A DNA stretch of 64,000 nucleotides from Naegleria gruberi (GCA_000004985.1 GG738894.1); one strand, 5' to 3'. Counted from the first letter of the stretch, positions 36,009 to 57,928 are shown. The notes: generated by a model not told the origin, from the sequence alone. Translations and numbers: made by a program.

Positions 36009-39000
36009 TCAAATAATGGAGTTTATTTCTTCAGTCTTGACGATTGCTCCCACATGATACTTATTGTCCAATAAATAAGTCTGAAGAATTCCCTTTCCTT
36101 TTACTGCGATACTACGCTCCTCAAATGTGAATTCTAAATCAAAAACTCTTTCATATGTTTTTCTTGACAGTTGAATTCTTCCAGGTAAACTAGTGCTTTC
36201 CATCCTACTTGCTGTAGTTATGGAAAGAAAATAAGAAAATCATTAAATAATTATTACCACACTTCAAACTTACCTGTGTTGATATTGTCTCCCCAAAGAT
36301 CGTATGCAAACTTCTTCTTTCCAATCACTCCAGCTGTTACACTTCCTGTGTGTATACCTATTCTAATATTTATCTGTTTTTCAACAGGCTTTCTTGAAGT
36401 AATGTTGTAGTTACGAATAACATTGAAACAATCAATGGAAAATCTAAGAATTCTCTCTGGATGATTAATGTCAACATTGTTTAACCCTGCACAACAAAAG
36501 TAAGAATCACCAATGGTTTTGATTTTTTCCACATTATATTTGTCAGTCAAACCATCAAATCCATCAACCACACAATTCAGTAATTGCACTAACTCTGTAT
36601 GTGTTAATTGTGAGGTCAATGCAGTGAATTCAACCATATCACTAAAGAAACAGGTGACATCTGGGTGTTTCTCCGCAATAAGAGATGCTCCAGCCAAAAG
36701 TTGACGAGCTACAGAGCTAGGTAGAATATTAAGAAGCATATTTTCCGATTTCTTCTTTTCTTCGTTTAGTAATAAAATTGCCTTCTTCTCTAAGGTGGAT
36801 TCTTTGATGAAAAATAATGTAATGTGTTTGTTTTCAAAGAATGTTACATAGATATTGACTGTTGCAGGGAAAGTCTTTTGATTTTTTCTGACACACTCAA
36901 GTTCAAAAGTTTCTCCTTTAGGGCAGGTTTTTGTTACTTGTTTTTTGATGGATTCGACTTCGTTCTTAACCAAAGTTTGGTGTTCTCTTGTGAATATTTT
37001 AATAGGTTTACCAATAACATCTTCGAGTTGATAACCAAACATTCTTTGAGCTGAAGGATTGAAAATATCCACTAGCATTGTATCATTACATGTAATTACA
37101 CCATCAACAAATGTGTTAAGAATTGTCACTAGTTTTGCATCTCGCTCTGACGTGACACCATTGTTGGTAAATAATTTGGATGGGTTTTCATTAGGTAGTG
37201 TTTTAAATAATGCAAAGTTTTTAAGTTTCTCGTTGAACACCAAAGTATCTATCGATAGGTAATCGAACATGATTCTCATTTGTTGTTCTGCATTAGCATA
37301 TTCACGGAAAATGTAATACATCGAACAAATCGAGCAAGTGACAAGTACAAAGCCAATTACAAAACTCGCTATCACATAATTAATATTTGGTACAGAGGCA
37401 TCAACAGCGAAAATATTTGCAAAATCAATCAATTTCATCGATGACAAGTTAAAAAGAAATAAAATCTTAAGTAAGGAAGTAATATGTTCCTTGATAGTCA
37501 CTGGTTGAAATAAAATTGTCTGGGCCAATAAATTTTGTTTCAACAATATTTGTGTTGATAATAATATATGTGTTAGCATTGTATCTATTCCAATGCCACA
37601 AGTGCTGTTAAAATGAGTGTCAGTTTCTGGAATGGTACAATTTGGATCGCCCTTAATCAAGTGGTCTGTACCGGGAAACATGCCTGCAACTACTGATTCA
37701 AAGGGTTTTGTAGTTGATCCGAATAAACACCAATCCCAATTCCTTTGAAGATTTGCTGCCTCTTGATAATATTGAAGAGTCATATTTAAAGCTTCATCCT
37801 CTGTTATCAATGGTATATCGTCAACATTTCTATAATAAGCATATAGTTCAGTACTGTAAAATGCTACATTTTGCAGATGCTTGGTAGTTTCAAATACGTC
37901 TTGTACATTTACAAAGGATTCAACCGAATAATGGGTATTGTCAAACAAGCCACATACGAATACTGCCGTACACACTCCAACTGTTAAAAATATTACTATT
38001 ATCAAAATGGGGAAACATATCTTATGTTTGAGAGGATCTACTTTTCCTGCATGAGTAATCACTTCTTGTGGTTGTTGTTCGCATAATGTGTGGTATATTT
38101 CACCAACTTCTGGTTTAGAGACACACTCTTTCAGTAGCTTGACATGATTTTTCAATCTAGAGAAAGTGAATCTTGAATATATCAAATATAATACACACAC
38201 TATTAACAAGCAAGGTAACACGGCTGCTGTGTAAATGATTAAAACATTCCTCGAATTCAATGCCTCATCTATATGAACTTGTGTGTAAGAATGACAAAAT
38301 AAAGAATATGCCTGTGTAAGGGTATTTTGATTTCTATAAAGAAACATGAACATAAAGGATGTGTAGGTTTGTAGTAAAGCTTCACTTGTTTCTGACAAGA
38401 AGCGATTTGCCAATAGTTTTAAAATCTTATTGATTTGAGAGAGTGGGTACTTGTTTGACTCAGTCAGGTTATATAAACCTCCTCCTGGTATTACAGTTGG
38501 AATTACTAATGAATAGTGGAAATCAGTAAATTGAGAGTAGATTTGAGGTGAAAACTTTGAGGCAAAAGCAACGTTTTCTAAATTGACTATCGATTGTGTG
38601 AAATATTCGACATGCTGTTTGTATTTATCCATGTCAAAATAAATATCATTCGTCCAATTATGTTCGATGGTGATATTTGATTGCATCCAGTGGTCAATAA
38701 TCTGATACCCTCTTCCTGAAAGTAATAAGTTAGTGACACAGGGTATTGTGGCACATGCCTCCTTAGAATGTAGCAAATTGCTTGTTGCTTGATTGGAATA
38801 AATCAGTGACAGCAAGAATGGAGTGATGAGAGCAACCAAGAACAGTATGCAAAAGCCAACAAATAGTATGATAAAAACAGTTCGGCGTGTTGGAGTTGCA
38901 AGAGCATTGCTATAAATCATCTTTCTTGTTTGTGGATCCAGTGTTTCAAATTCTTCTAACGTTTGCTCCTCATTTTCTCTCCCATCAGTGGTAATTTCAG

Positions 39001-42000
39001 ACACAGAAGATTCACCTTCAGCTTTTTTAGTGGATCTGTTGCATTCATTTTCTTCGAGTAAGTTTGCTTTGTTAAAATTCTCATTTGATAATTCTGGATT
39101 TGCTTTAAATGATACCAAATATTGTGCATATATTCTTAGTGCTGTTTTGTCTTGACTATAAAAAGGAACAAGGTTGTTAAATATACAGTCACACTCGGCA
39201 ACTAGCTTGGAGCTTCTAAAAATGACTCTTTCAATTTTTTCCATAATAATACTTTCTTTCAGAAACTCTTTCCAAAAATCCTTATGAAGAGCATAAAGTT
39301 CTTCGGTTTTTCTCCGAATTTTAGACAGTATTAATACCAGTTCTGACTTGGAATCATCTTCACAAAGATACGCCTCAATTTCCTTCTTCTTTTGGCACAA
39401 TGAATACGAAGAAACAAAATTTGCATACTTTGGTGTCATATTTTTTGTTAAAATTGAAAAAGCCAATGTACGTTCACCCTTCGTTTGATATGCCATTATT
39501 GATGCTGATACTAAGGGCAACCTCATACTGCTGTTTAAATCTTGTAAGGTTGCCTTGATAAATGCTATTATCCCTGAATGATACTTGCTTCGTTTAGGTC
39601 CTTTCATCATTTCAAACTTTAAAAAAAGACCCAATAGGTAAACAATTCTATCATCTTGGAGATTTAAGTTTTTTGAGACTGTATATGTTCCAGTGTCTGG
39701 TTCTTCTTTAAAAAACTTGTTCTTAAATTTATACATATTGTATCTTGTATAACATTCCATTGTCACACATCCAATTAAAGCCATCAATAGCATCAACCCC
39801 AGAGTAGCTGAAAACAATATTATTCCAAGAGTGTTATCGTTGGTCACATTGACAAAATATGTCACAAGACCAGATACACTTGTGGCCAGTCTACAGAAAA
39901 TGATACCACTAATAACAGTATTTTCAAATCTTCTTAGCATTGGTATTGTTTGAAAAACAAGTATTATCAATAGTAGAGTCGAAATTATGTGTACAATAGA
40001 TCTTAAATATGCCGTGTACGGAGGAATTAGATGATGAATGACAATCCCAACAACATTGCACAACGGAATAGTGGCCTGAAAGATAATATTGTCATTTAGC
40101 ATTGGGGAGTTGCTTAATGGATGAGAATTTGGTAGAATCAATATTGATAGACCAAGTACAATTATAAAAACAACTATTGAAAGCAATGATAATATCATCA
40201 GAGGAATGTTGATAGAATCGAAACAAGGGGAACCTGGGAATCGATTCAACACCATTCCATTAGGTGCCCGACTAAATGGAATAACTACAGCAAGTGGTTC
40301 AGGTTGCGTCAAGCCATAACTGCAGTCTACAAAGGAAGTTAACACGTATGTGACAGGTGCCGAGATCAATAAACAAGTGTAACATAGAATATGTACCACT
40401 TTTTTCAGGAGCTTCCTCCTGCTACTTACTCTTTTCACAGCAGTATTAGCCAAAATAAAACAGCACACAATTGCCACAATAGTGATCATAAAAAATACAG
40501 CAAGACCAAGGTTAGCATAATATGGAAATGTCCATGATGCAAGAGTTATTGGAAAGTTCAAAACTTTGATGATCCAACTAGCCCATACTCCAAATCTGAA
40601 AGACACTGGATTTAGTAACGGTATCCATACAAAACACCAAAACAATACAAGCTGTACGATGAGTTGCTTAAGAAACTCAATGGTTCCTTTTCTAATTTTG
40701 TTTGCCTGCATTGCAAACAAGAAGATAAAAAACTCATTCGCTATGGCAGACCCAAACTCTGATGATAGAGTAGAGCTCTGGCAAGTAATAGATGTAGAAA
40801 ATCCGTTTTGTTTTTTTTCATCCTTGTTTGTGTCCTTAGTTTTGTTTGGTTTCTCAATACTGATGGCTCCATTATGCTGAAGTCTTATATAGCCTTGCAT
40901 TTCGATTTCAAACTTTGCATTGTCTAATTCAACTTCTTGTCTCAAATCATTTGGTATGAGATTATTATCCACATTGTTAATATTCAACTTTGGGTCTCTT
41001 CTGCTGTACATGAGCATGTAAGCATTTGTGGAATCGCCAATAATCTCATCATTTCCATACATGGATTCTATTTGAGATTTATCAATTTCATCAATATAAT
41101 TATCATTAAATTTAAACCATTTCCCTGAATGGAACGATCTTATTAACACAAAGTAATGCTTTAAAAAAGGTCACTAAAAAGCTAGCTATTTTACATACCC
41201 CTGTAAGTGCATCTCCAGAATGAATGATAACACTATAAAGATCAAATAAATGTTGCTGATCATCTACATATTTTGACATGTCCAACACAAAGGGAAAGGT
41301 AACTTTGTTTCCAAGCTAATACTACAATTACATTAATATGAACAAGTTCATACTTACCTTGACAGGAGTATTTGTTTGATAATCAACCCTCTTGAGTTGA
41401 AGTGTTAAAATGTAGGGAAGATGAGCCAATTTTAAATTCTTGACCGCATCTATTTTCTTATTTCCAAGCTCCTCACAACACCATTGATTATCTCCCTTCA
41501 TTTCCTCAGATTTTAAAAAACTTTCAATGGCCTCCTCGACACTGGACACATCCCGAATAGCCAATTGCAAATCCATAAAACTGTCCACTTTGGTGGTTTG
41601 ATATACTTCACCACTTTGTTTCTTCTCATCCACAGACTCGATATGATCTATTACAGTGCCACAAAACAGGTCGCTGAAGGATACATTGCTATCGTTATTG
41701 TAATTTTTTTGTGGTGGTGATGAATCAGTTTCTTTAGAATGGGATCCGTCAGTCAGCACGTCGAACAAGATCCTAAACACTTCATGAATATCGTGTTGAA
41801 CTTTTAAATCTGATGCTTGCCAGCCTAAGCATAGAAAAATTTTCGCACACGAATCAATCATATTATGTGTTGATAATGAAATCTAAGGACAATCGAAAAC
41901 TTACCAAATGAATTTGTTAACTGTGTGGTGTCCACTGAGTTTCTCTTTGATAAAGTCAAATAGGCAAACAAGCGTTGCAATTGATAAGGGACGCAATGGT

Positions 42001-42211
42001 CCTGGTCAGGATCATGCTCAGGATCGTACCTCCATTTGAAAACCAACTCACGAAATTTTGGTGTGTGATGCAGAGATTGTAGTAGAGAATTTAAATAACA
42101 TGTGGTTCCATTATTGGTGAGGCCAACAAAATGCTCTTCCTCTTGTGCACTACAAGATTGACGCCAGTTGGTGTTGGATGGTCCACTTGATGTTTCGTGG
42201 TTGTACTGCAT
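36009..42211 (-). CDS. USP-type deubiquitinase domain fused to a multi-TM module, an extracellular loop domain, PAS and a class III adenylyl/guanylyl cyclase domain (receptor-type cyclase A); five exons
   Basis: Exon 1 (42211-41905) gives ...GLTNNGTTCYLNSLLQSLHHTPKFRE (USP Cys box). Exon 2 (41824-41358) gives GWQASDLKVQHDIHEVFRILFDVL...NQWCCEELGNKKIDAVKNLKLAHLPYILTLQLKRVDY. Exon 3 (41315-41200) gives LGNKVTFPFVLDMSKYVDDQQHLFDLYSVIIHSGDALTG. Exon 4 (41160-36275) gives HYFVLIRSFHSGKWFKFNDNYIDE (USP His box), then with no intervening stop about 12 TM helices, a roughly 430-aa loop between two TM helices, PAS (VTILNTFVDGVITCNDTMLVDIFNPSAQRMFGYQLEDVIGKPI) and cyclase (FFSDMVEFTALTS...KIKTIGDSYFCCAGL...IRIGIHTGSVTAGVIGKKKFAYDLWGDNINT). 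Exon 5 (36211-36009) gives ASRMESTSLPGRIQLSRKTYERVFDLEF...*. Introns are 39-83 nt, with GTAAGT/GTATGT donors. Confidence 0.8.
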
Positions 42212-42524
42212 GGTGATGTAAATTGTACTTTGTTTAAGTGGCGTTCCTCCTATTTTAATTGAAATTGAGACTTTAGTGTGACAAATTTATTATCTAATCT
42301 ATTTTGGTAAAATTGTAAAAATAGTAATTAGACTTCCGTAAAAAGTTGCGTCTTTTTGAAGGTACAAAATACTTTCACGGTAAACACTGCTTGGAACACA
42401 AAATCTGAGCAACACTCAAACTGTTTTCAAACAATTCTTCCAAGGTAAACTGCAAACAAACCAACTGCCGCTTAGTGCAAACTCTTAAATTGATTAAATC
42501 TCTGGTTCCAAAAACCAAATGTTT

Positions 42525-42650
42525 TCCATTGAGTAGGGTGGAAATCATTCCCTCGTTTAATTGTTAATTATTTGAAAGGGCATTAAAAAGGAATTGGATT
42601 TGTGACAGTTATTAAGGAGTTGATCATTAATATTAAATTCCAAAAAAAAT
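42525..42650 (+). repeat. Direct repeat R, copy 2 (immediately 5' of the ATG at 42649)
   Basis: See 35805-35950. Confidence 0.8.
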
Positions 42651-43558
42651 GAAACGACAACAAACCTGCGCTAATCCAGAAGAAAAAAGCGAAAAACGCT
42701 CCAAACACAACGATCAAGCGAAAATTGTAACCTTGCAGATGGATGAGGCTTTGGCGGGAAAAAATTCTAGCCTCTTATTCAGTAAGAAGACGAAGAATAT
42801 TGAAATGACAATTCATTTGAACGGAATGGAGTGTCATGAAGGGATACTTTCCACCATATTTGATTTTCTGGATGTGAAAGATTTGCAATTTATTAAATCA
42901 GTATCATGGAAATGTTATGAATTGGTGCTTGCTGATAATTCAAGATATGCACAGAGAATGAGGGAGGAGTTTCCAATATATTGTAAAAGATTGGAGTATT
43001 TGAATGAGTTTGCTGAAGGTTTGATGATAAAGTGGCTGAAGAGGAGATTTGTGAAAAGACATGGCGAGAGATTATTATGGTAGATTGTGGAGAAATCAAA
43101 CGGGAATCATGAGAAGGTTGTTGAAATTATTGTGAATTATGGATTGTTTGATCTTATTGAAATATTATCTGATGAGTTTCTAAATGCTAGACTTGCATTA
43201 TATGAATGTGGAAAGAAGATAGATGAGTTTGAAAGTCTCTTTGAAGGTAAGCTATTTAATTGTGTTTGCCATCCCTAAAATGTGTACAGATGATTATGGC
43301 CTGTTTGCAATAAGTGAAATCATTTCACAGGGGGAGGAGTTCTATAAAAAGGTTATTGCTAAACCTGAGCTTGGTAAATCAGCACTTCGATACGGATATG
43401 AGGAATACATGTATTGTTTCCATTCTCTCTATTACATTCCAACTCAAAACTATATTGCAGAAAACGAAATTCAGTACGAAAGAAGAAAACAAAAAACCAT
43501 CAAAGCACTTATTGAAGGGTATGATGTTTTTAAGAATTTCAATCCTATCTATTGTTAG
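42649..43558 (+). CDS. Hypothetical F-box-like protein (ECHEGILSTIFDFLDVKDLQFIKSVSWKCYELV); an in-frame TAG at 43081-43083 and one intron
   Basis: ORF 42649-43083 and ORF 43087-43278 lie in the same frame, separated only by TAG. A 43-nt intron (GTAAGC at about 43249, ...TGTACAG at about 43291) then joins ...SLFEG to DDYGLFAISE...NFNPIYC*. Confidence 0.45.
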
Positions 43559-43973
43559 GTGGTTTCCAATAACAGGTTGTTTCTTTAATATTATTCCATT
43601 GTACAACAACTTGATTTCCAAGAGTTTAACCAAAAAGAACAAAACCTCAACAACAAATTCCTAAAATACTCATTAAGAAATGTTTCATCATCTTTGATGG
43701 TTGCAAACTTTCTGTAGTCTGAAACCAATCAATTAAAGGATTTTTATTAGAATTGAAACAATTACAAGTGAGAGGAAAGTATCGAATGAGGATTTTAGAT
43801 ATTCTCCAGAAAGAATCTAAAAAACGGAGCAAGACAATCCGTTCCAGACTATTTTTACAATCGGAACGGAAAAGTATCTCGGAGACGGAGTCATTTTTCA
43901 CTTCAATTAAACAGTGGACAACCAACACAATCACTTGCCGTATACACACTGGTTTCCCTCTTTCAACCTATAA

Positions 43974-45154
<1,181 letters not shown>

Positions 45155-45537
45155 ATTTCACACCTGTGTATTGAAATAAATTTTGTAAATATATTTTAAA
45201 AAACTCAAAGCTAATTAATATTGTAAACACAAATTCAATCGTATTTTGCCCATCTCTCTAAAAAGCCGATTCCTTGAACCAAGAATCCAATTTTGCCTCC
45301 TCAATTTATATAAGGCACTGTAATATTTCATTTTTCTTCTTCTAACATTTTGTAATGATGCCAATTAATTTCGCCGCCTGCTATTCCACCTCTTGACTTG
45401 GCCAAGGTTTGCACCGACAACACACATTTTTCAAGTTCACCTTTAAATAGCATTTGGCAAACATCACAAGATTTCAAAAAAAAAATATCAACACCCTCAC
45501 TTGTAGTACATACTTTTAGTATAATTTTAAAACAAAG

Positions 45538-46245
45538 ATGATCTTTAGACAATTATTCTCTGCTGATACTTGCACAATGACTTTTATTTTGGGATGCGAA
45601 CAAACTGGACAAGCTGCCATTGTTGATCCTGTCATTGAAGAATGCGAAAGAGATGCCAAGTTGGCTAAGGAATTGGGATTGACTATTACACATATTTTGG
45701 ATACTCACGTTCATGCTGACCATATTACTGGTGGTATTGCCTTGAAGAAACACTTCCCACAAGCTACTCATGTTTATAGTATGCATTCCGGAGTTACTTT
45801 CACTACAGGATTGACTTTGGCCAAGGAAGGTGATGTTATTCAAGTTGGTTCTCTCAAGATTCACGTTTTGGAAACTCCAGGACACACCAATGGTTGTTTG
45901 ACCTATTATACCGATGATAAGAAGATGGTTTTCACTGGTGATGCCTTGTTCATCAGAGGATGCGGAAGATGTGATTTCCAACAAGGATCTGCCTCCAAAT
46001 TGTATGATTCCATCATGAAGATTTATTCTACATTGCCTGATGATTGTTTGGTCTATCCTGGTCACGACTATAAGGGCATGATGTTCTCCAGCATTGGTGA
46101 TGAAAAGAAGAATAATCCAAGAATTTTCGCAACTCAAACTCGTGAAGGATTCTGTGAAATTATGAATAACTTAAAGTTGCCAAATCCTAGATATCTTGAT
46201 GTTGCTTTGCCAGCTAACTTGTTGGGTGGTGTCAAGACTAATTAA
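45538..46245 (+). CDS. ETHE1: Persulfide dioxygenase ETHE1 (metallo-beta-lactamase fold, glyoxalase II family)
   Basis: MIFRQLFSADTCTMTFILGCEQTGQAAIVDP...THVHADHITGG...ETPGHTNGCLTYY...FTGDALFIRGCGRCDFQQGSASKLY...PGHDYKG...NPRIF is colinear with human ETHE1 (MIFRQLFESESCTYTYLLGD...HCHADHITGSG...SPGHTPGCVTF...[25 protein letters not shown]...PAHDYHG). Confidence 0.9.
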   Translation: MIFRQLFSADTCTMTFILGCEQTGQAAIVDPVIEECERDAKLAKELGLTITHILDTHVHADHITGGIALKKHFPQATHVYSMHSGVTFTTGLTLAKEGDVIQVGSLKIHVLETPGHTNGCLTYYTDDKKMVFTGDALFIRGCGRCDFQQGSASKLYDSIMKIYSTLPDDCLVYPGHDYKGMMFSSIGDEKKNNPRIFATQTREGFCEIMNNLKLPNPRYLDVALPANLLGGVKTN

Positions 46246-46491
46246 TTATTTCCGTCATCATCAAATAATTATTATCTATATTTTAAATAATTGTGATGAG
46301 AATATATTTTGATTGTCCGACTTGCTAAAAACAATATGTACATAGAGAAAATAAATTTTGAATTTAAAAATCTTTTTAATTTACAAAATAATAATACAAT
46401 TTGATAAATTCCAAATCTTTCAAAATATTTACATATATAATATTTCAATAATAATTATATTAAAATTTTCCATTACTTCATCATAAAATTA

Positions 46492-47025
46492 TTACTGTCT
46501 TTTAACAACAGTTTTTGGTCTTTTACTACCTCCCATCAAGGCAGAATTCGACACTGATACCAAATCTTCCCTCTTCCTAAACGAATCAAATCGTTCTCGT
46601 TGTTCCTGTTGATTTTTCCTCTTCAAAAAAGCCTTCACCAAATTACGTTGTCTCGTCAGCTGTTCTGCTTGTTCCGTCAGCAAATCTGCAGCATCGGAGG
46701 CTGAAGCAGAATTGGCGCCATCTCCGCCACCACCACGTCTCTTCTTCTTATTATTGAGCGAAAATTCCAACATATCGATACGACGATTTCGCGCCTCAAT
46801 ATCCATCTCGAGTTGTTGAATGTACATGAGCATGTGATGGAATCGTTGTTGGAGTATCGAGTTGTGTGAGGAGAGTGAATCGTCCCATTTTTCAAATTTC
46901 ATATTGGAGAGAGGATGCGATTCGAGGGCGGCAACTTTTTGTTTTAGAGTTTCACATTCGATTTCTTTCAGCATGAGACGAATGTGGAGAGGTGAGGTGA
47001 GGTCCAAGGGCAGTATTGAAGACAT
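46492..47025 (-). CDS. Hypothetical coiled-coil protein (177 aa)
   Basis: ORF with heptad character and a basic C-terminus; no domain recognised. Confidence 0.4.
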   Translation of the reverse strand: MSSILPLDLTSPLHIRLMLKEIECETLKQKVAALESHPLSNMKFEKWDDSLSSHNSILQQRFHHMLMYIQQLEMDIEARNRRIDMLEFSLNNKKKRRGGGGDGANSASASDAADLLTEQAEQLTRQRNLVKAFLKRKNQQEQRERFDSFRKREDLVSVSNSALMGGSKRPKTVVKRQ

Positions 47026-47303
47026 TTTTTTTTGATGAATTATTTGAATGACATGTTTGACATGATCTGTTCTTTTTGTTTTGAGGATTCGTATTTGAAA
47101 GGTTTAGAATAGCAGTTCTATAGAAATATTTTCAAAGTAATTTCATTATCTGTTATATTCAATGTATTGTAATATAAAGATTTAATGTATTGAAAGCAAA
47201 GAAATATTTTATTCTAATTGTTTCGAATAGGAATACATCTATTTTCACATCAAATTTCCATTAAAAAAAAATTCAAAAGTTTGCACGGACTTGTCCAAGC
47301 AAC

Positions 47304-49998
47304 ATGTCCTCATCGAATAACAATAGCAAAACAATACGTTTCTTTTCGGATACCAATTCGAATACACTTATCAGAAACTCACCATCCAACAATACAAACT
47401 TAAAGGACAACTCTAATCCCATCCTCTCCATCACCACCACCACAACTCCCAACAACAACAAATCCACCACTCAATCTCCTCACCATTTAGACTTTCAACT
47501 TTCTCCAAGTACTTTACAAAACACTCGCAAATTCTCCCTCAACAAGGATATATTAATTTCCATGATCAATAATTCATCTACATCTGCTACATCTCCATCC
47601 TCTTCATCTATAAATTCTCCTTCATCATCTTCATCATCATCACAACAATTAAATAATAATTTTTCATCATCAAATAATTTATTCAATTCCGTTGATCCGG
47701 ATTCGAGGAGGCGGAGTAGTGGCGGAGAAAATATTAATATCGGTAGTGGTAATGGTAGTGGTAATAATAATGCGAGTGTTAATAGTTTGGGAGGTGCAGG
47801 GAATAATTCAGTTCTCTTTTTGAATTTGGACGAAAGATTGGCCATGCAAACACAGAATGAATTGAATTCTTCGAGACCGATCAATCATCAGAGGAATAGA
47901 CATAAGGGATCTGGTGGTATTTCTGAATATTCATTTACGGTGGATGATTTGATATTGCCAAATAGTGATATATCATCACCTAGATTGGCAATTTCAAGTA
48001 ATTTAAATTCGAATATTGTTTCTTCTAATGTTTCGAATGCGAAGAGTCCAACTCCTCATTCAAAATCAAATTCAACGACTACAGCTACCTTTGTACCATA
48101 TATTTCTCCTTTAAATACTTCGAATAGTTTGGAAAGTAATGAATTGGGAACTACAGAATTTGTCAATTTGGATCTCACTTCAATTTTACCTCATGGAAAA
48201 TTATTGAGATTCTTCCTTGTGAATAATCAGGACTATTTCACAGACACTGTCCAATTGAGAAAACACAGCCCCGTCATTGCTCAGGAAATTGATTTCCAGC
48301 AACGATTGAATGAATTTGAAAATCAAAACACTGGATTCTTTTCAGATATTTCCATTAGATTTGTACCGAGTGGAAGAGAGATTCGTGCCCATAAATTCAT
48401 TCTCTCCATGTATAGTCCCGTGTTGGCTACACTGTTTAGTTCGAGATGGAAGGAAACTCATGATAATGTCATTGAGGTTTTGACTGAAGTTAGTAATCAG
48501 AGTGGTGGTGGTGTAAATTTTGAGGAGGTTGACGATGAGCAATTATTTGTGGAAATGATTCTCTGCATGTATAGTGGTCAGATTTATCAAGTGGAGCAAC
48601 ATTTAATTGTTCCATTGTTGGAGTTATCTGACAAGTATCAATTTACAGAATTGTCGAGAGCTTGTGAGGAGTATTTGAGAGTTCACTTGAATGAACACAA
48701 TTGCATTTCATTGCTCTATCTTGCCAATGGAATTTCCATTGAGAATACTCTTCAATCCTCTGCAAATACGAGACTTTCCATTTCATCAACAACTGGAAGC
48801 AAGTATTCAAAGGGAAAGTTTGATCGATTGAAAGAGAGAGCACTCGCCTACATTGATACACATTTCGAGTTGGTTTCCAAGACCAAGGCATTCCTCTTTT
48901 TAGATGTTAACATGTTGATTTTCCTCCTTAATCGTGGTGAGCTCAGAGTTGATTCTGAGGATGTCATTCTCAGTGCCATTTTAAATTGGTGTGATGGTGA
49001 TCTGTGCAATAGGAGAGAACTCTTATTCTCAACTCTATTGGAACATGTTCGATTGTACCACCTCTCTCCCAATCGATTGGCTCATTTGGGTGAAGTATTG
49101 GAAAGGTACACTGGAACATTGGAGAATTCCTCTCTCATGATGCCATGGATGAATAGAATCATGCAAGCCATGTCCTATCAAATGTCTCACACTCTCGGTT
49201 TCCAACTCTCTCAGAGTATGCAACAGAAAATTGCACTCGAATGTCCTCCAAGAAAGAGAGCTACTCAAGATATTACAAGAATTTCAAATTTATTATCACA
49301 GGAGCAATTTTTACAAATTGCAGAGTGGATTAATGAGCAAGGAAAGCAAGGATTGATGAAGGATGTTTCTGAAAGGTTTGTTTCCATTTTCCCACTCTAA
49401 TTGATTAATTTTCTAATAATTTTTTGTAAATATATACTTCACACATTTTACAAATATTTCACACAAATACAATCTCAAACTAATCAGAGAATGGCTACTT
49501 CTCTACAGAGGAACAAGGGATGGTTTTCAAGGTAAAGCTTTCCATGCCAAATGTGATGGAAAAGGTCCAACTTTTTGTGTCATTAAAACAGATAAGGGAT
49601 TTCTATTTGGAGGATTCACATCCAAGAGTTGGCACAGTAACAACACTGATGAGAGTGACGAATGTGCATTTTTATATTCTCTCTACAATCCCTATCTGAA
49701 CAACAAAATGACAAGATTTAAAATCAAACCTGGAATGTCAGCTGCCATTGGATGTTATGCAAACTTTGGAGTAATTTTTGGTGGAGGAAGAGATTTAATT
49801 CTCTATTCTGAAAGTAATATTAACAATTCGAGTCATTGTGAATTCTTTGGCCACACTTATCAATTACCAAATTTAGCAGGAGTTTGCTATGGATCTCTGA
49901 AGAGTAAAACCTTCTTCAATGGAACTGAACAGTTTAGAGTGAATGATTGTGAAGTTTTTGGATTAGTTCCATCCTCAAATAAATTCCTTACCAAGTAA
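47304..49998 (+). CDS. BTB/POZ-BACK protein with a C-terminal TLDc domain; two exons (47304-49375, 49488-49998)
   Basis: S/N-rich N-terminus. BTB is SDISIRFVPSGREIRAHKFILSMYSPVLATLFSS...; the BACK-like region is ...LIFLLNRGELRVDSEDVILSAILNWC.... A 112-nt intron (GTTTGT...AATCAG, phase 2) joins ...KDVSE-R-EWLLLYRGTRDGFQGKAFHAKCDGKGPTFCVIKTDKGFLFGGFTSKSW...FGGGRDLILYSES...EVFGLVPS, a classic TLDc signature. Confidence 0.7.
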
Positions 49999-50115
49999 TA
50001 CTTGTCCTATTTCACATTGAGAATCTTTTTGCATTTCACACACAAGTCAATCGACAGTTAGCTCCATAACAATAACATTTAAATGAGCACACTAACTTGT
50101 TTATAATATTTTGGG

Positions 50116-50550
50116 TTAAACGATTTCACAACAGGTTTTTCTTTCAAATTCTAACAATTCCAATTTTACTTGTTGCAATTCGTCTAAATCTTCCGAATCT
50201 TGAACAGTTTCCACAAAATGTCTATCAATAGATAACAAGACATTCTTCACCTCTTGAAACTTATCGGAGTAATATTGAATTTGATCTTGTTGTTCTCTTG
50301 TTGGATTTTCAACTTTGATTAACATTAGTTTTTCTAGACGAAAGTCAATTAAAGCAATTTTCTTTTCCGTAATTTCTTGATTAGAATACTTGGTTGGTTG
50401 TTGATAGTGATGAGCTGGTTCCTGCAGACCGGTATCTTCGAAAAAGCTTGGAGGACCATAAGGAACAAGTTGTCTGTAGAAAGATGGCATTTTTTTGAGT
50501 TTAGAATAGTTCGTTTCGTGTTCATGATCATTTTTTGTTAGGTGGCCCAA
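50116..50550 (-). CDS. Hypothetical protein (144 aa)
   Basis: ORF only; acidic C-terminal half. Confidence 0.35.
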   Translation of the reverse strand: MGHLTKNDHEHETNYSKLKKMPSFYRQLVPYGPPSFFEDTGLQEPAHHYQQPTKYSNQEITEKKIALIDFRLEKLMLIKVENPTREQQDQIQYYSDKFQEVKNVLLSIDRHFVETVQDSEDLDELQQVKLELLEFERKTCCEIV

Positions 50551-50740
50551 AGGTAATGTGAGAAAAACTTTTTACCATGTGAGAATAAAAGTTAATGAGA
50601 AAGCTGTTCAAAGATCTTTCAATTTTTATGTTTAGCAACCTAACAAAAAATGATCTGACGTCATTAATGATAAATTCAAAATTTATTTACAAGATTATTT
50701 ACAAATATTTCATCACAAAAGAAGGTTTCTACTAATGAGA

Positions 50741-51628
50741 TTACTTTTTCATATCCAAAAGGACAAATTCAGTCATTGAATTCACTCCCTCAATGAATAA
50801 TTCCTCTTCAGTGGATGAATCTGAATGAATGAAACAACCATCTCCTTCTTTCAATGTTACAATTTCTTGATTGTTTCCATGAGAAAGTTTGATTGAAATT
50901 GGGTTTTCTAAATTTGGTGATTTGAATAGTTTCATTTTCAGATAATTGGAAATGAAAGGGTTAGCTTTACGAAGTAAAGAAGAAAACAAACCATTTAGTT
51001 TAGAATCTTCAACTGAAGATGATCCAATTCTACTCATAATTGGAACGTGAATATAAATTTGACGACCAGGTTGCAAAGTATGATTGACTTTCTTTCCAGA
51101 TTCCAATAAACTTGAAAGTACATAAATATCTTGATCAATTCCAATAAATTCTTCACTCAATTTGGCACTTTCGTTTGGAACAATCATTAAACGCAATTGA
51201 TTCAGTTTTTGTTCTGGTGTGAAATCTTTCGTTTGATAATTTGGTTTCGAATTGAAATTTCGAGGTTTCACCCAAATTTGTAAGAATTTGACATGCTCAT
51301 TCTTATCCCTATTAAACTCACTGTGATAAACTCCACTTCCAGCTGAAGTAAACTGAACTGAACCCTTCTTACAAACTTCTGTATTTCCCATAGAATCTGA
51401 ATGAGTCAAATTTCCAGACAAGATATACGAAAATATTTCATAATTCTGATGAGGATGCATTGGAAATCCGCTTGATGGCTCCACTGTATCTTCATTCAAT
51501 ACTCTCAATGGTCCGAATTGAGTAAACTTTTGATTTCGATAGCTTGAAAAGGAAAATGTGTGGTAGGTATCAAGCCAGCCTTCATCATAGTGTCCTCTTT
51601 CTTCTGATGGTCTAATTTCAAATTTCAT
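50741..51628 (-). CDS. Pirin-family cupin protein (YhhW/quercetinase-like)
   Basis: GFPMHPHQNYEIFSYILSGNLTHSDSMGN fits the pirin N-terminal cupin motif HPHRGFETVTYvleG. The 295-aa length suits a bicupin. Confidence 0.8.
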   Translation of the reverse strand: MKFEIRPSEERGHYDEGWLDTYHTFSFSSYRNQKFTQFGPLRVLNEDTVEPSSGFPMHPHQNYEIFSYILSGNLTHSDSMGNTEVCKKGSVQFTSAGSGVYHSEFNRDKNEHVKFLQIWVKPRNFNSKPNYQTKDFTPEQKLNQLRLMIVPNESAKLSEEFIGIDQDIYVLSSLLESGKKVNHTLQPGRQIYIHVPIMSRIGSSSVEDSKLNGLFSSLLRKANPFISNYLKMKLFKSPNLENPISIKLSHGNNQEIVTLKEGDGCFIHSDSSTEEELFIEGVNSMTEFVLLDMKK

Positions 51629-51690
51629 TTTTCTTGTTATTTGGCGCGTGTGTTGTTGTTTGTTTTTTTTTGATTTGAAAAATTGAAAAG

Positions 51691-51706
51691 TTTGTTGGCG
51701 GGAAAG
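51691..51706. promoter_or_regulatory. GC-box TTTGTTGGCGGGAAAG (E2F-like TTGGCGGGAAA) about 70 bp upstream of the pirin ATG, in the bidirectional pirin / cyclase-B intergenic region
   Basis: An isolated GC-rich motif in AT-rich DNA. The same TTGGCGGG core occurs at 17143-17153, about 55 bp upstream of the S10 carboxypeptidase ATG. Confidence 0.25.
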
Positions 51707-52527
51707 ATAAAGAAAATTGTGAGCGCAAGAACTTGCTGGTTAGTGCGCACGGTTTTTGTTGTGCCAATTCCGTTGGTTTTTTATGGGCAAATTGCTGCAC
51801 TTTACAACCTTGTTCACGGAAAAGGGAGTTTTAGTACCAGTTACGGATTCGAAGTACTTGAATGTTGCAAACATGTTGGTTACAAAAAATGGTCCTTAGA
51901 TTGTACTTATGAATGCCTTAATGGATCACTCACATTTTGGAAACAACAATCCTAAAAATCTGGTGGCTATTAATTTTTTTAAATGGTTTTCTATTTTTCT
52001 TTTTTGAATTACTTTTTTTTAAGGATATGGATATGGAGATTGATCAATTAATAGGAGCACTAAGCTTACTTTCCTTGAGTTTAACACTTTTTATGGGGTA
52101 AGAAAGTGCAGGGGTTCGCAATCTGAAGTCAAATTTCTAAAATATCTTGTATTCATCGATAAAGAGGCAAACCCTTATTTCTCAAAAACCCACATTACTT
52201 TTCTCTCAAAGAAAAAACAAATTATCGAGTTTCACATTGGATATTTAAGGTAAATCACCGAGGACTGCCTGTGATTCTCTGCCTTAATTAGAGGTTAAAA
52301 TTTCCAAATAGAGGCACTGGAATGACTCTCCTTAATGAGATACACAACATGAATCACTAACAAACTTTGCTTTAACAACCCTCAAAAAACATAAGCAACT
52401 CTTCATCATCAACCACAACAACAAATTTTGAACTGTTTAAAATTTCTAACCAACATTAATATTAAGGAACATCAAAATCTACAACAGCCATTTAAAAGAA
52501 CAGTAGATTTATATAAAACACAAGAAA

Positions 52528-55500
52528 ATGCAAGCCTCATCTAGTGGACAATTTGAATCCGATGGAGAGGGTTCTGATTTTTTGACAAATAACAATAATA
52601 TTAATGGTGGAGGTGGAGGAACCAATGGTGCTCCCTTAGCAAATCCACAACAAGCAATGAGTAATGTCGGAACGAGTAGTGTTGGTTCGACAGTTTCAAC
52701 TAATACCGATTCTAATCTTTCAAAGAATGTTGTGTCCATGTTTAGAGATCAATTCATTGGATTTATGATATCATTCAATGCAAAAGTATCGAGAATTTCC
52801 AAGCTAAAGTATGGTATCCTTAATATTTTGATATATGTGTACTTGTGGTACGTTACAATGGTACTCTCCTCTTGTCCTTCAAGAATTGATGAAGAAACAT
52901 CTGCATCTGCATCATCATCTTCAACAACATCTTCCTCACATCACTACTTGTGGGGAGAAATACCAGGTTGGATTCATAGAGCCTTATTCTATCCCATAAA
53001 TTTTGGCGTAGAACATTACCCTTACGAGCTAACATTGACAATATCTGCGCTATATCTGCTTGCTGAGGTTATTTGCATTGGACTCTTAGTTCTCTTTCAA
53101 GTGGCCAAGAATAAGGGAAGCAAATGGAGTGAAAAGATTAATTCAATTGCTTCCAAACTGATACTTTTCCTTATTGTGACTTCACATTTTGCATTGTGGA
53201 TTCATACAGTACCTATGGCACCACTCGAATCAATACCACTAGGACACGGTTCATCAACAATAACGAGTAGTTCATCATCATCAAAAACATCTTCTTCAGC
53301 AGAGGAGGACACTTATCTTTACTATTATCCTTCTCTTTCAATTAGTTCAACAGTGAATATTATTTTCATAGTGATTGGTGCACTTGGTGTGGTTTGCAAT
53401 GTTGGAGTGACACTGTTGGGATTCATTCTCACTGCAGAAACTGTTCCACCAATGAAGAAATATTCCTTATTTTCAATTGATAGAGTGGAGCCAACAGCTG
53501 TTCTTCTTTTCACAAATCAATTGAGTGTAATTGTTACTGTTATTGTAACTTCTCATTTGGCAGTCGTGTCGAGTGCATTCAAGATTGTAATCTCTGGAAT
53601 ATGCTTGATTTTCTTCATGAACAAAATACCCCACTACAGAAAGTGGGAGAATTCTTTAATGGTGGGAGTAATGTTTGGAAAGACTTTGGGAAGTATTGGA
53701 CCTCTTGTTTCTGATCTAATAGTCTCGGGCGAAACAAATGCAACTACTCTTGGAGGAGCACTAACTGGTGTCACTATTGGATTGCAAGTAATTGGATTCA
53801 TTATAGGATTCATTGGATTTTACATTTATCTAAGCATGATAACTAGGTCTGTTCGTAAATTCTTATTATCAGAATTTGAGGATAAGAAGAAGGATAAAAT
53901 AGGAGCACAACAAGCATTTGCCTATTTTGAAGAGAATAAGAATATGAAGAAGCTGTCACTCTATATCAAATTATCAATGGGAGAAAATGGTTCTGCAAAC
54001 TTTAATGTGGCCACTCGATTTGTGAGGAATATTGGTGTTTCCAGAAGTATGACCAATGTGGATTTCCTCATTACAGCAGCCATATTCTCTGCATTCCATC
54101 CGGATGTAGATGACCAATTTACATGCATTGCCAATGCCATTCATTTACTTCAGAGAGCTCAAAAACAACATCCATCACTCTCGTTCAAGTACATGATCAT
54201 GTTAAGGCATAAGGAAATTGAGGAGAATATGAATACCATATCTGCTATTAATATTGAATTGAGACAAATGTTACAGACATTGGATAAGAAACAACACTTG
54301 TTACAATATTTCCATAGAGAATTTTACAAGGAACTTTTGAATGAACATCCTTCATTGTCCAAGATGGAAAATATCAATAGAACTATATCCATTATAGTTC
54401 AGGATTGTGATCTCAAGTTTAGAAATTTACTAGTCTCCCATCCTAATGATAAAACCCTATTGAGATCGTACGCCTGTTACTTGGAAACTTGTAGGTGGGA
54501 GAAGGAGCTAGCAGCTGAATACTATGATGATGCCAATCAAATTGAGGAAGAAGAGGCAAGAAAACACCATCATAAGAAGGCAAAGAATAACTTTATGAGT
54601 AGTGACTTTTCAAAGAGAAGAGCCATTCCAACAGCATCAAACAAAGTCGTACCAATATCCAATATGGCTGCTAATTTCGATCGTAAAATTAATGCCTCAC
54701 TGGATTTTGATGTTGTGGAGAAATCGTTAGATCATAAACATGATGAAGAAAATTGGGAATCAGTATCAAATGCAGAGGAGTTATCTAAGAAGGAAGACTT
54801 GTTCAGAATTGCAATCAACACTGAGGATGACCATACTTTTACCAAAATTTGGTTTTCCATATTCACCATGTTCTCTATCATTGTCATTTCTGTAATTATT
54901 GGTTTTGGAATGGGCCAGCTCAAGATTACAACAGACAGAGTTTCACTGCAAGAGAAGGTTTGCTCACTGAGTGGAATTCCTTACCTCATTGTTTCACAAT
55001 TAAGATCAGTGCAGTCCATCTATAGATTCTCTTCCTCTTCGTGGGAGCAAACTCTCAAGGTACCACTGGTTGCAAATATAGCAAAGAATCAATTAAGCAT
55101 GTTGATGGAGAAGGTACAACATGTCAAAGATGCCTCAAACAATGGTGAATTTGTTCCCGAAGTTGTTGAAATGTACAATGAAGTTCGTTGGACGAATATC
55201 ATTCCTATTAAACAACAAACAGAGGAAACAAGCATTCCATTGTACCATAAAGTGAACGGATCGATTGCAGAGTTTGTCGAATCCATGTTGACACAAGCTC
55301 ATGAACTTGAGAAACAGTTTGATAATTTACATGTATTGAATGTTACCATGTCAAATTATAACTTTTTATACTAGTAAGTTTTATATCCTTCATTGAATTC
55401 TCTATAACGTGAAATAGTTATTTGGGAAGAACTGAAATGACAGAAGCTTTTGACTATTTTTGTTCTACCTTCATCAAGAGTTCAGAAAGCACAGAAATAG

Positions 55501-57928
55501 AAGGTCAAAAAGAGTTTTACATTCTCTGTGGTGTTTTGATGGGTACCTATGCTCTACTTGCTTTGATTTATGTAATTGTTTTGAGAACTCAGCTTTTACA
55601 AACATTGAGAATTATTAGATGTATATTCAAGAAGATTCCAAAAGAAGAAAGTGGCAAAATTTTTCATCGTTTTGATAAGAAACTCTATGATGAAATACAT
55701 AAGGAAAATAGAACAGTGTTGACACCTAAGAATCTCTTCCTTGTCACTACCATTTTGATTATTTTGATAACATTCCTTGTGTGTATATTGATCATTATTG
55801 ATTTCGAACAGGGATCACAAGAAATTATGTCCACAATGGTGACAGTCTCATCGCTAAATGATGTTATTACCATTTCTTCAAAGGTTACCTTTACGTTGAA
55901 TGAGTTAATCACAAAAAGTATAATCATGAATGAAAACTGGATTGATTTGAGAGATAGAAACTTGGAAGATTTGAAACAAGCTGCCATAGCATGGAGAGAC
56001 ATTACCATTGGTGGCAGTGAAAATAATTTCAAGCCAACAGTGTTTGGTATTTTACCTGAAATTGATGACTTGTTGGATGGAACCTGCAGCAATAAGACAT
56101 TCCAGGTGTCTGAACCTCTCAATTACACAACAGTCATGTCAGAATTGAGTTGCAGAGGAATGGATCAATTGTTGAATATATTTATGGATAGATCCTATGA
56201 ATTGAGTCAAGATTTTTATTCTAATTACTATGATAAGGAAAGTGCTATGGAGTTGTACTTTACTTACATTTATTTCCTCTCTGTAACTTTCTCAGACAAG
56301 TTATTGGACTTGATAAGTGTGTATGTGAATTTCGCAAAGCATCCAGAAGTTGCCTTAGCAGCGGCATCGACTTCTGTTGGTTTGATATTAATTATCATGT
56401 TGAGCTACTTTGCCTATTCAAATATTTCATCCTATTGGATGGAAAAGCAAAATTTAAGAAGTTTGTTAAATTATATTAATTGGGAATTGATTGAACAAAT
56501 AGACGATTTGAAGCAGTATGCAGTTTCACATAGAATTAAGGAAAATACCTATCAAAGTTTGGAAAAGGTTTCTAGCAAAATTTCCAAGTTCAATGTTTTC
56601 AAATTTGAAGATGGTGACGATGAAGAATCCAACGATCCATTGGCCATGACCAAATCTATTCTATTGGCTGCAGCTGATGGCAGTATCGTTTGTAGTTCAA
56701 ATGGCTCTATTACAATTTTTAATCCAGCAGCTGAAGACATGTTTGGTTTGAAAGGAAGCGAAGTCATGGGAACACACATCACTGATCTATTCTCCATTCA
56801 AGATCAACCTAAAATTGCAAATTTGCTCAAATCCATGAATAGTTCACTAAGTGCCTTCTCTGAAACATTCGAAGCAACAGCTATCCGAAAGAACAAGACA
56901 ATCTTCTCTGTGAAACTCTCAATGAGTGTTTGTATCTTTATGAAGAAGGCCATTGTTTCATGTTTCGTCAAGGATATTACCCCAGAGAAGAAACAAAATG
57001 CTCTCATTGCTGAAGAAAAGAAGAAGAGTGAAGATTTATTATTGAATATTTTACCACTTCCAGTCGCAAATCGATTAAAACAAGGTGAAACATTCATTGC
57101 TGAAAAGTTTACAGATGTCACTGTATTCTTTTCTGATATGGTTGGATTTACCAAAATGTCATCAGGAATGGAACCAGATCAATTGGTTAAAATGTTGAAT
57201 ACCATCGTTAATGAATTTGACAAGCTGACAGAAAAGTATTCCATTGACAAGATTAAAACTATTGGAGACGCCTATTTTAGTGTAGGTGGTTTGCATGCTT
57301 CCAAATCAAGTGATCACCCAGAAAGAATGTTAAGAGTAAGTTGTAATAAGTTTACAAAAAAACGCAATATTCACACAAAACATAGTTCTCAATTGATATC
57401 TTTTTCTTTTTGAACAAATTCAACACAGAGACCAACAACAAGATTAACCTAAGAGTTGGCCTTCATACTGGTGGTTGTGTGGGTGGTGTAATTGGCAGTA
57501 AAAAGTTTGCCTATGATTTGTGGGGTGATACCATTAATACTGCCTCGAGAATGGAATCTACATCCATTGCTGGAAGAATTCAATTATCCAGATCTACCTA
57601 TGAGGTAAGTTTCTTTCTAAAAAGATTACAAGATTATTTCTAATACTATTTTCACCTCAATGTTTAGAGAGTTTTTGATTTGGATTTCCAATTTGAAGAA
57701 AGAGATGGAATTGAAGTAAAAGGAAAAGGATTAATGAAAACCTATCTAGTCCATCAAAAACACCATCCAATTGCTTTTGAAGAAGAACACGAAATGACTC
57801 CAATTATTATTGAACCACAAACTTGTCATCCTCCATTATTGGAATCAAACAACATGTCAACACCACTTCTTGAGGAACATTTGGAAAACAATGATGAAAC
57901 CCTAGAGTATACCATTGTCCAACACTAA
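52528..57928 (+). CDS. Receptor-type class III adenylyl/guanylyl cyclase B (multi-TM, extracellular loop, PAS, cyclase), paralog of cyclase A but lacking the USP domain; four exons
   Basis: Exons are 52528-55373, 55418-57335, 57386-57604 and 57668-57928, with introns of 44, 50 and 63 nt (all GTAAGT...AG). PAS is ILLAAADGSIVCSSNGSITIFNPAAEDMFGLKGSEVMGTHI. Cyclase is FFSDMVGFTKMSS...KIKTIGDAYFSVGGL...HPERMLR|FSIDIFFFLNKFNTETNNKINLRVGLHTGGCVGGVIGSKKFAYDLWGDTINTASRMESTS...STYE|RVFDLDFQFEERDGIEVKGKGLMKTYL. The exon 2/3 junction was set by alignment to cyclase A (ERILRFSIDCFNVIRNYNITSRK...INIRIGIHTG). Confidence 0.8.

Follow-up and report, generated by a model that had tools for sequence, protein, structure and literature searches.

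Two head-to-head genes for predicted receptor-type PAS-adenylyl cyclases belong to different orthogroups, and one reading frame opens with a USP47-like domain

How did two genes for large PAS-domain cyclases come to face each other at one locus, and what do they encode? The pair, here named A and B, was found in a 64-kb stretch of DNA (64,000 nt of GG738894.1, assembly GCA_000004985.1), which as a whole is referred to as the window. The two genes are orientated head-to-head and are separated by 10.3 kb of unrelated genes. An earlier reading of the sequence (the original prediction) regarded them as paralogous receptor-type cyclases and took an inverted local duplication, followed by intron gain or loss and by domain accretion, as their simplest history. 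Based on our analysis, A and B would rather be anciently diverged members of different orthogroups within an uncharacterised family of large membrane receptor-type PAS-adenylyl cyclases. We consider this explanation, taken as a whole, to be very probable.

Both genes were reconstructed by listing the GT...AG introns that restore the reading frame. The introns obtained in this way were 80, 42, 40 and 62 nt long in A and 44, 50 and 63 nt long in B, and all seven had the borders GTAAGT or GTATGT...AG. Spliced A matched the Pfam profiles UCH (positions 1–254 of 254) and Guanylate_cyc (3–182 of 183) end to end, as did spliced B in the case of Guanylate_cyc (3–182 of 183; E-values in Table 1), which validates the splice sites of both genes. 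The coordinates, strands and quoted peptides given for A and B in the original prediction were all correct, and its introns for B agreed exactly with the rebuilt model. For A it had listed 39, 42, 83 and 63 nt against the rebuilt 40, 42, 80 and 62 nt; here only the 42-nt intron was exact, whereas the others were off by 1–3 nt. The positions of the introns (ERMLR/FSIDIF and STYE/RVFDL in B, DNINT/ASRMES in A) were as noted before and, as had also been stated, differ between the genes. Two read-throughs of open reading frames (ORFs), NTGKFEVW and SCNKFTKK...SFSF, each up to a stop, had been suspected to be intron sequence and turned out to be so.

From the first transmembrane (TM) helix to the C-terminus the two proteins could be aligned colinearly, and they carried the same set of Pfam families (TPR_TmcB, PAS_9 and Guanylate_cyc). 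In BLASTP, A1144–1992 and B853–1708 shared 30% identity (E = 2e-107), and A484–1009 and B140–683 shared 22% (E = 1e-24). Paralogy with a colinear architecture is thereby confirmed, the similarity being far above chance and reaching well upstream of the PAS domain; the same applies to the difference at the N-terminus, where A carries an additional USP domain. The order of domains common to both proteins is a bundle of 7–8 TM helices, a TPR_TmcB domain, two tandem modules each consisting of a TM helix, a loop of ~190 residues and a second TM helix, a PAS domain, a helix with the motif KKKSE..LLNILP and one class III cyclase domain. We read this helix as the type linking sensors to class IIIa cyclase domains.

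The catalytic domains reached Pfam scores of 174 bits (A) and 197.5 bits (B) against PF00211 (cut-off 21.9 bits), and both could be aligned to the C1 and C2 domains of AC9 as well as to bacterial homodimeric adenylyl cyclases (ACs). In the alignment to AC9 C1 and C2 the catalytic residues of A are found in FFSDMVEFT, KIKTIGDSY and AYDLWGDNINTASRM; their counterparts in B are FFSDMVGFT, KIKTIGDAY and AYDLWGDTINTASRM. A single domain holds both metal-binding Asp residues (FFSDMV and TIGD), the ATP-specifying Lys (KIKTIGD) and Asp (YDLWGD) and the transition-state Asn/Arg pair (NTASRM). By the established rules for class III cyclases, A and B are predicted to be homodimeric adenylyl cyclases. Since one chain carries the complete set of residues, we propose a homodimer with two active sites, which would make cAMP.

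The PAS domain, identified with the profiles PF13426 (PAS_9) and PF00989 (PAS), is a generic one. A heme-binding PAS domain of the FixL/DosP type, to which the nearest solved sequences belong, was considered and rejected: the proximal His of the F-alpha helix is not conserved, the candidate His of A (TREHQ) being Lys, Lys and Glu in three orthologues and absent in B. The match of the PAS domain to FixL was weak (E = 8e-5) and covered the N-terminal half only.

In the hydropathy scan the N-terminal bundle showed seven peaks, and behind TPR_TmcB four strong TM helices bracketed two loops of ~190 residues. A large loop between two TM helices ahead of the PAS domain had been predicted originally; such a loop is present, but there are two of these modules and not one. 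For residues 1040–1600 of A, an AlphaFold2 (AF2) model based on an alignment of six sequences (predicted local distance difference test, pLDDT, 73.7; predicted TM score, pTM, 0.69) presented both loops as helical bundles continuous with the TM helices, with a single additional beta hairpin in loop 1. The Cache- or CHASE-like fold that had been suggested for the loop is therefore not borne out: the loops are predicted to be helical, putatively with sensor folds of the four-helix-bundle type, and neither A nor B had a Pfam match to Cache or CHASE. The AF2 model of the N-terminal bundle of A was poor (pLDDT 61.6) and contained eight helices. An even count of eight would make the N-terminus and the TPR, PAS and cyclase domains cytosolic, with the Cys-bearing loops on the outer side.

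Module 1 and module 2 are probably the products of an internal tandem duplication. BLASTP detected no internal repeat between them, and a profile-profile comparison was colinear over 248 columns (probability 81%, E = 1.2e-5), a signal partly driven by the TM helices. Module 1 is followed by the motif LPK(D/E)xxGKIFH and module 2 by LRxMxNY(I/V)P, both of them cytosolic and conserved throughout the family; these sites lie at 38153–38032 and ~37310–37250 (minus strand) in A and at ~55607–55743 (plus strand) in B and may be signal-relay or interaction sites.

The receptor-type reading of the original prediction was judged to be reasonable. The two loops would lie on the outside, each forming a sensor domain with a helical bundle of the chemoreceptor or NIT type. 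A ligand would shift the TM helices flanking the loops, and the activity of the cyclase would be set by this movement together with the cytosolic PAS domain. Alternatively, the loops might have a structural role or serve oligomerisation, or the 12-TM body as a whole might be channel- or transporter-like, by analogy with ciliate and apicomplexan P-type-ATPase cyclases. Such a role would fit the very poor conservation of the loop sequences (15–23% identity between A and B, with weak colinear matches of the B modules to the A modules at E = 0.003 and 6e-4), and no Pfam family, sensor families included, matched either loop of A or B at E ≤ 0.01. A Foldseek search against the PDB returned nothing significant, and its weak top matches included TTYH channels and EAAT transporters. 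We nevertheless regard this alternative as unlikely and retain the loops as putative ligand sensors.

To which members of the family A and B are most closely related can be seen from database searches and from the tree. The match between A and B (450 bits) ranked 19th among the database matches of A. The best relative of A was FDP41_001627 of Naegleria fowleri (37.7% identity, 1059 bits) and that of B was FDP41_007173 of the same species (44% identity, 1259 bits). The orthogroup of A comprised FDP41_001627, C9374_013611 of N. lovaniensis and NAEGRDRAFT_81665 of N. gruberi, that of B FDP41_007173, NAEGRDRAFT_71437 of N. gruberi and two metagenome proteins. Identity of A and B to their Naegleria orthologues was 31–44%, colinear over the full length. 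A neighbor-joining tree of 39 full-length proteins (1299 columns, 100 bootstraps) supported each orthogroup with 100/100 and a sister relationship of A and B with 0/100. The latter value did not rise above 0/100 when the bundle with TPR, the loop modules, and PAS with cyclase were analysed as three separate partitions, across which B ranked 20th to 27th of 38 among the neighbours of A and the nearest neighbours of each gene were those of its own orthogroup. Since the partitions agree, gene conversion is not masking a close relationship of the two genes. With Naegleria orthologues of their own and this tree, the split between A and B would predate the divergence from Naegleria.

A local inverted duplication that made A and B in place, with introns gained or lost and the USP domain added afterwards, would explain why two members of one family with colinear architecture stand head-to-head at such a short distance. 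By random placement only ~0.1–0.2 such pairs would be expected per genome (a rough estimate for perhaps 15–25 members and a genome of ~40 Mb), and in Naegleria family members and other cyclases are likewise found near each other. However, neither the whole alignment nor any partition ever joined A and B, and the orthologues of A and of B are found on different contigs and are thus unlinked in N. fowleri and N. gruberi. A DNA-level inverted repeat is absent: similarity between the genes is limited to patches of 32–63 nt in the most conserved codons, and inverted matches to 32–44 nt at 72–84%. Nor does the supposed gain of introns agree with the data. In the N. fowleri orthologue of A an intron interrupts ERMLR/F, the same site as in B; this intron is therefore ancestral and was lost in A rather than gained in B. 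Any local duplication must hence predate the Naegleria split and many other splits within the family and would be neither recent nor the simplest history. We regard an origin of the pair in place as improbable, and a recent inverted duplication is excluded by these sequence comparisons. The story of a fresh inverted duplication is thereby to be replaced by an assignment of A and B to distinct orthogroups that are apparently older than the Naegleria split.

The N-terminal domain of A raises a question of its own. According to its catalytic domain, the "USP" is a ubiquitin-specific protease of the USP47/USP7 type (peptidase C19, PF00443). The best solved relative is the catalytic domain of USP47 (8itn, E = 8.5e-66), to which both the Cys box GLTNNGTTCYLNS and the His box HSGDALTGHYFVLIR...KFNDNYID are aligned. 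The nearest relatives were the metagenome genes here named L001–L003 (51% identity) and L004–L006 (45%). L001 (3416–5527) and L004 (1777–2988) are USP47-like genes on eukaryotic metagenome contigs with 33–39% G+C. These contigs may be derived from related amoebae, since breaks in L001–L003 coincide with two of the intron positions in the USP part of A. In L001 and L004 the catalytic domain and a short helix (IP..L..EV) are followed by ubiquitin-like (UBL) domains and USP47_C; no remnant of UBL or USP47_C was found in A or in the whole window.

The homology of A to L001 and L004 ends at approximately residues 383–391, and the homology to the cyclase family begins at approximately residues 417–436, upstream of Met445. 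Here, AIANEFFIFLFAMQAN of A aligns with internal residues of the Naegleria orthologues, in which Met445 corresponds to an internal Met or Ile. Over residues 340–470 frame 0 is open, whereas 4 stops interrupt frame 1 and 11 stops frame 2, and the junction contains no canonical splice donor. Judged from sequence, the ORF of A thus joins a truncated USP47-like gene in frame to a cyclase gene, an arrangement unseen in the sampled relatives. Among the retrieved relatives, no cyclase contained UCH and no USP contained a cyclase domain; the A-orthologue of N. fowleri has no USP neighbour, and a scan of metagenome contigs revealed no relative of the junction peptide. In the literature searched, nothing relevant was found on a ubiquitin-cyclase fusion in Heterolobosea or on the combination of a deubiquitinase with a receptor cyclase.

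In gene A, the cytosolic segment with which the cyclase itself begins would have come to lie in frame behind an acquired USP47-like catalytic domain that lost its UBL/USP47_C tail. We tentatively entertain the further step that A is translated as a 1992-residue protein with an active USP47-type deubiquitinase in cis with a 12-TM receptor-type PAS-adenylyl cyclase. If true, the receptor could strip ubiquitin from itself or from its neighbours and thereby resist ubiquitin-driven internalisation. Alternatively, it could couple ubiquitin signalling to the cAMP output. If expressed, this candidate natural fusion would link ubiquitin and cAMP signalling in an unusual way.

The USP and cyclase A could also be expressed separately, either from an internal start of the cyclase at Met388 or Met445 or by ending the USP transcript through an unrecognised splice or early polyadenylation, the ORF being an accident of a truncated USP47 copy. 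Besides the absence of the combination from all retrieved relatives and of a USP gene beside the N. fowleri orthologue, a start at Met388 would leave an N-terminal tail of ~76 residues, comparable to the tails of 80–110 residues of the Naegleria proteins. Splicing of a 155-nt intron from a weak GTATTG donor to the acceptor ...TTTGCAATGCAG would bring a nearby stop into frame, and genes in the window are as close as 75 nt to each other. However, the donor of this candidate intron departs from the consensus, and none of the seven confident introns exceeds about half its length. A stop codon is missing from the end of the USP part, the homology to the cyclase family reaches upstream of Met445, and the three introns and the catalytic boxes of the USP part are intact, which argues for continued selection. 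Separate expression is thus possible but, in our opinion, rather doubtful.

A further source of the junction would be an artefact of assembly or sequencing, in which a collapse or deletion removed the USP47 tail, the stop codon and the intergenic spacer. The architecture was indeed found in this window only, and the scan for the junction peptide was empty. Against an artefact speak the join itself, which is in frame and falls neatly between the end of the catalytic domain and the start of the N-terminal cyclase segment, the uniform composition across the junction and the absence of any repeat or low-complexity sequence that would invite a collapse. We therefore consider an artefact to be very unlikely.

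Several points weigh against our explanation of the locus. Two members of the family within 10 kb exceed what random placement would lead to expect, and an old local duplication with retained linkage is possible, albeit with no positive support. The unattributed junction in A amounts to ~25–55 codons, over which a frame left open by chance is just moderately improbable, with a probability of ~0.02–0.15 (our own estimate at ~7% stops per codon). The membrane topology was derived from the hydropathy scan and from AF2 models on six-sequence alignments only, that of the N-terminal bundle being the poor one. Finally, all claims are drawn from sequence and from predicted models.

How widespread the family is was determined by an exhaustive HMMER search with residues 444–1640 of A, i.e. 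with the cyclase domain excluded, which yielded 128 cluster representatives at E ≤ 1e-3. A word-indexed homology search with full-length B, capped at 8000 candidates, gave three matches and no family member, probably owing to the low-complexity N-terminus of B. The members that were looked up by name all belonged to N. fowleri, N. lovaniensis, N. gruberi, Willaertia magna or Acrasis kona, in addition to metagenome sequences. Among the named relatives looked up, the family has so far been found only in Heterolobosea. At least 81 cyclases have been reported for Naegleria (PMC9928731), and many cyclases were noted in Acrasis (PMC11589745). Heteroloboseans carry cyclases on the order of a hundred, and the pair A and B is a routine sample of a large family. 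In the literature no experimental work was found on the Naegleria orthologues FDP41_001627, NAEGRDRAFT_81665, FDP41_007173 and NAEGRDRAFT_71437. The anatomy described here gives a concrete receptor model for a large family of signalling proteins in Naegleria, a genus to which the pathogenic N. fowleri belongs. Only two points appear to merit follow-up, namely the ectodomain, predicted as a double helical bundle, and the ORF in which USP47-like and cyclase parts are fused.

Cyclase genes seem to cluster near each other in N. fowleri and N. lovaniensis. In N. fowleri an unrelated cyclase composed of OpuAC and Guanylate_cyc (VFQX01000027.1, 19045–21840) is located 3.7 kb downstream of the A-orthologue, and in N. 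lovaniensis two members of the family (C9374_007051 and C9374_007057) are found on the same contig, six locus tags apart. NAEGRDRAFT_78958 of N. gruberi, a member of the wider group of B, is named "FM179" in UniProt. We take this, presumably, to be the label of a set of Naegleria flagellar-motility genes, in which case it would hint at a role in the flagellate stage.

Table 1. Coordinates of the two cyclase genes, their predicted domains and the region between them
Feature	Position (nt)	Strand	Residues and remarks	Basis
Gene A	36009–42211	minus	5 exons, 1992 aa; USP47-like domain and multi-pass PAS-adenylyl cyclase (predicted)	Splice model
Exons of gene A	42211–41905, 41824–41358, 41315–41199, 41158–36274, 36211–36009	minus		Splice model
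USP47-like deubiquitinase catalytic domain of A	41006–42127	minus	aa 29–348; introns of 80, 42 and 40 nt inside	Pfam UCH 1–254/254, E 4e-53
USP-cyclase junction of A	40745–40885	minus	aa 389–435; open in frame 0 only, no stop	
N-terminal membrane bundle of A	39713–40684	minus	aa 456–779; 7 hydropathy peaks, 8 helices in AF2 model	
TPR_TmcB domain of A	39044–39328	minus	aa 908–1002	Pfam PF25474, E 3e-9, 37.3 bits (cut-off 27)
Two tandem TM-loop (~190 aa)-TM modules of A	37310–38896	minus	aa 1052–1299 and 1340–1580; predicted helical-bundle ectodomains	
PAS domain of A	36803–37135	minus	aa 1639–1749	Pfam PAS_9 E 2.8e-13, 50.5 bits (cut-off 27); PAS E 2.7e-6
Class III cyclase catalytic domain of A	36066–36676	minus	aa 1792–1974; holds 62-nt intron 36273–36212	Pfam Guanylate_cyc E 3e-51
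Gene B	52528–57928	plus	4 exons, 1747 aa; A-like architecture without USP domain	Splice model and Pfam
Exons of gene B	52528–55373, 55418–57335, 57386–57604, 57668–57928	plus		Splice model
N-terminal membrane bundle of B	52813–53853	plus	aa 96–442	Hydropathy scan
TPR_TmcB domain of B	54211–54561	plus	aa 562–678	Pfam PF25474, E 1.2e-14
Two TM-loop-TM modules of B	54847–56426	plus	aa 774–1012 and 1058–1285; 44-nt intron in loop 1	Hydropathy
PAS domain of B	56652–56981	plus	aa 1361–1470	Pfam PAS_9 E 3.5e-16, 59.8 bits; PAS E 1.8e-10
Class III cyclase catalytic domain of B	57099–57754	plus	aa 1510–1690; holds 50-nt and 63-nt introns	Pfam Guanylate_cyc E 1.9e-58
Intervening block	42212–52527		Weak F-box ORF, cathepsin-L-like C1 protease, MBL-fold protein, BTB/BACK protein, pirin, ORFs without family match	Pfam scan

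The window has a G+C content of ~35% and closely spaced genes with introns of 40–80 nt (GTAAGT...AG), and the database proteins nearest to A and B come from Naegleria. A tblastn search with A and B found no third member of the family in the window. A 601-residue ORF without Pfam match (58003–59808, plus strand) begins 75 nt past the stop of cyclase B and shows how tightly the genes are packed. Elsewhere in the window, an ORF at 27972–29936 (minus strand) consists of the C-terminal lobe of a protein kinase and a right-handed beta-helix or NosD-like region; its N-terminal kinase exons probably lie upstream beyond an intron. Two neighbouring ORFs at 19661–22486 (plus strand) jointly form one CitMHS-type transporter with a TrkA_C domain and are evidently a single gene interrupted by a short intron.

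The closest known systems include the Naegleria orthologues annotated as "Adenylate and Guanylate cyclase catalytic domain containing" proteins, which have the same set of TPR_TmcB, PAS and Guanylate_cyc domains and the same TM pattern as A and B. They differ in that none carries a UCH/USP domain and in that the intron positions are partly different. The catalytic domain in front of cyclase A is closest to USP47 (and USP7), with which it shares the Cys and His boxes and the IP..L..EV helix behind the domain. Compared with the USP47 relatives L001 and L004, A is devoid of the UBL repeats and USP47_C, and a membrane cyclase follows instead.

The sensor part may resemble bacterial TM sensors with a periplasmic four-helix bundle flanked by two TM helices (Tar/Tsr, PilJ/McpN, NarX/NarQ, TorS and the double-bundle NIT of NasR), a likeness that is predicted only and comes without a match of sequence profiles. 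In contrast to these, A and B would have two modules per chain behind an extra bundle of 7–8 TM helices, and they are eukaryotic with a cyclase as output. With TmcB of Dictyostelium (tiny macrocysts protein B, after which PF25474 is named) A and B have in common a TPR_TmcB domain following a multi-TM region. TmcB is not known to carry PAS or cyclase domains; a literature search on it gave nothing relevant.

With regard to the output, the catalytic domains match those of homodimeric class III ACs (mycobacterial Rv1264/Rv1625c/Cya types) and the C1/C2 domains of mammalian ACs (E = 1e-55 to AC9, 4e-44 to the bacterial AC 5o5k). Shared features are the Lys/Asp pair for ATP and the full set of residues, which A and B hold in their one domain. 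The membrane anchor and the sensor parts of A and B, however, have no relationship to the 6-TM anchors of these ACs, and the mammalian ACs differ furthermore in that A and B have one catalytic domain per chain.

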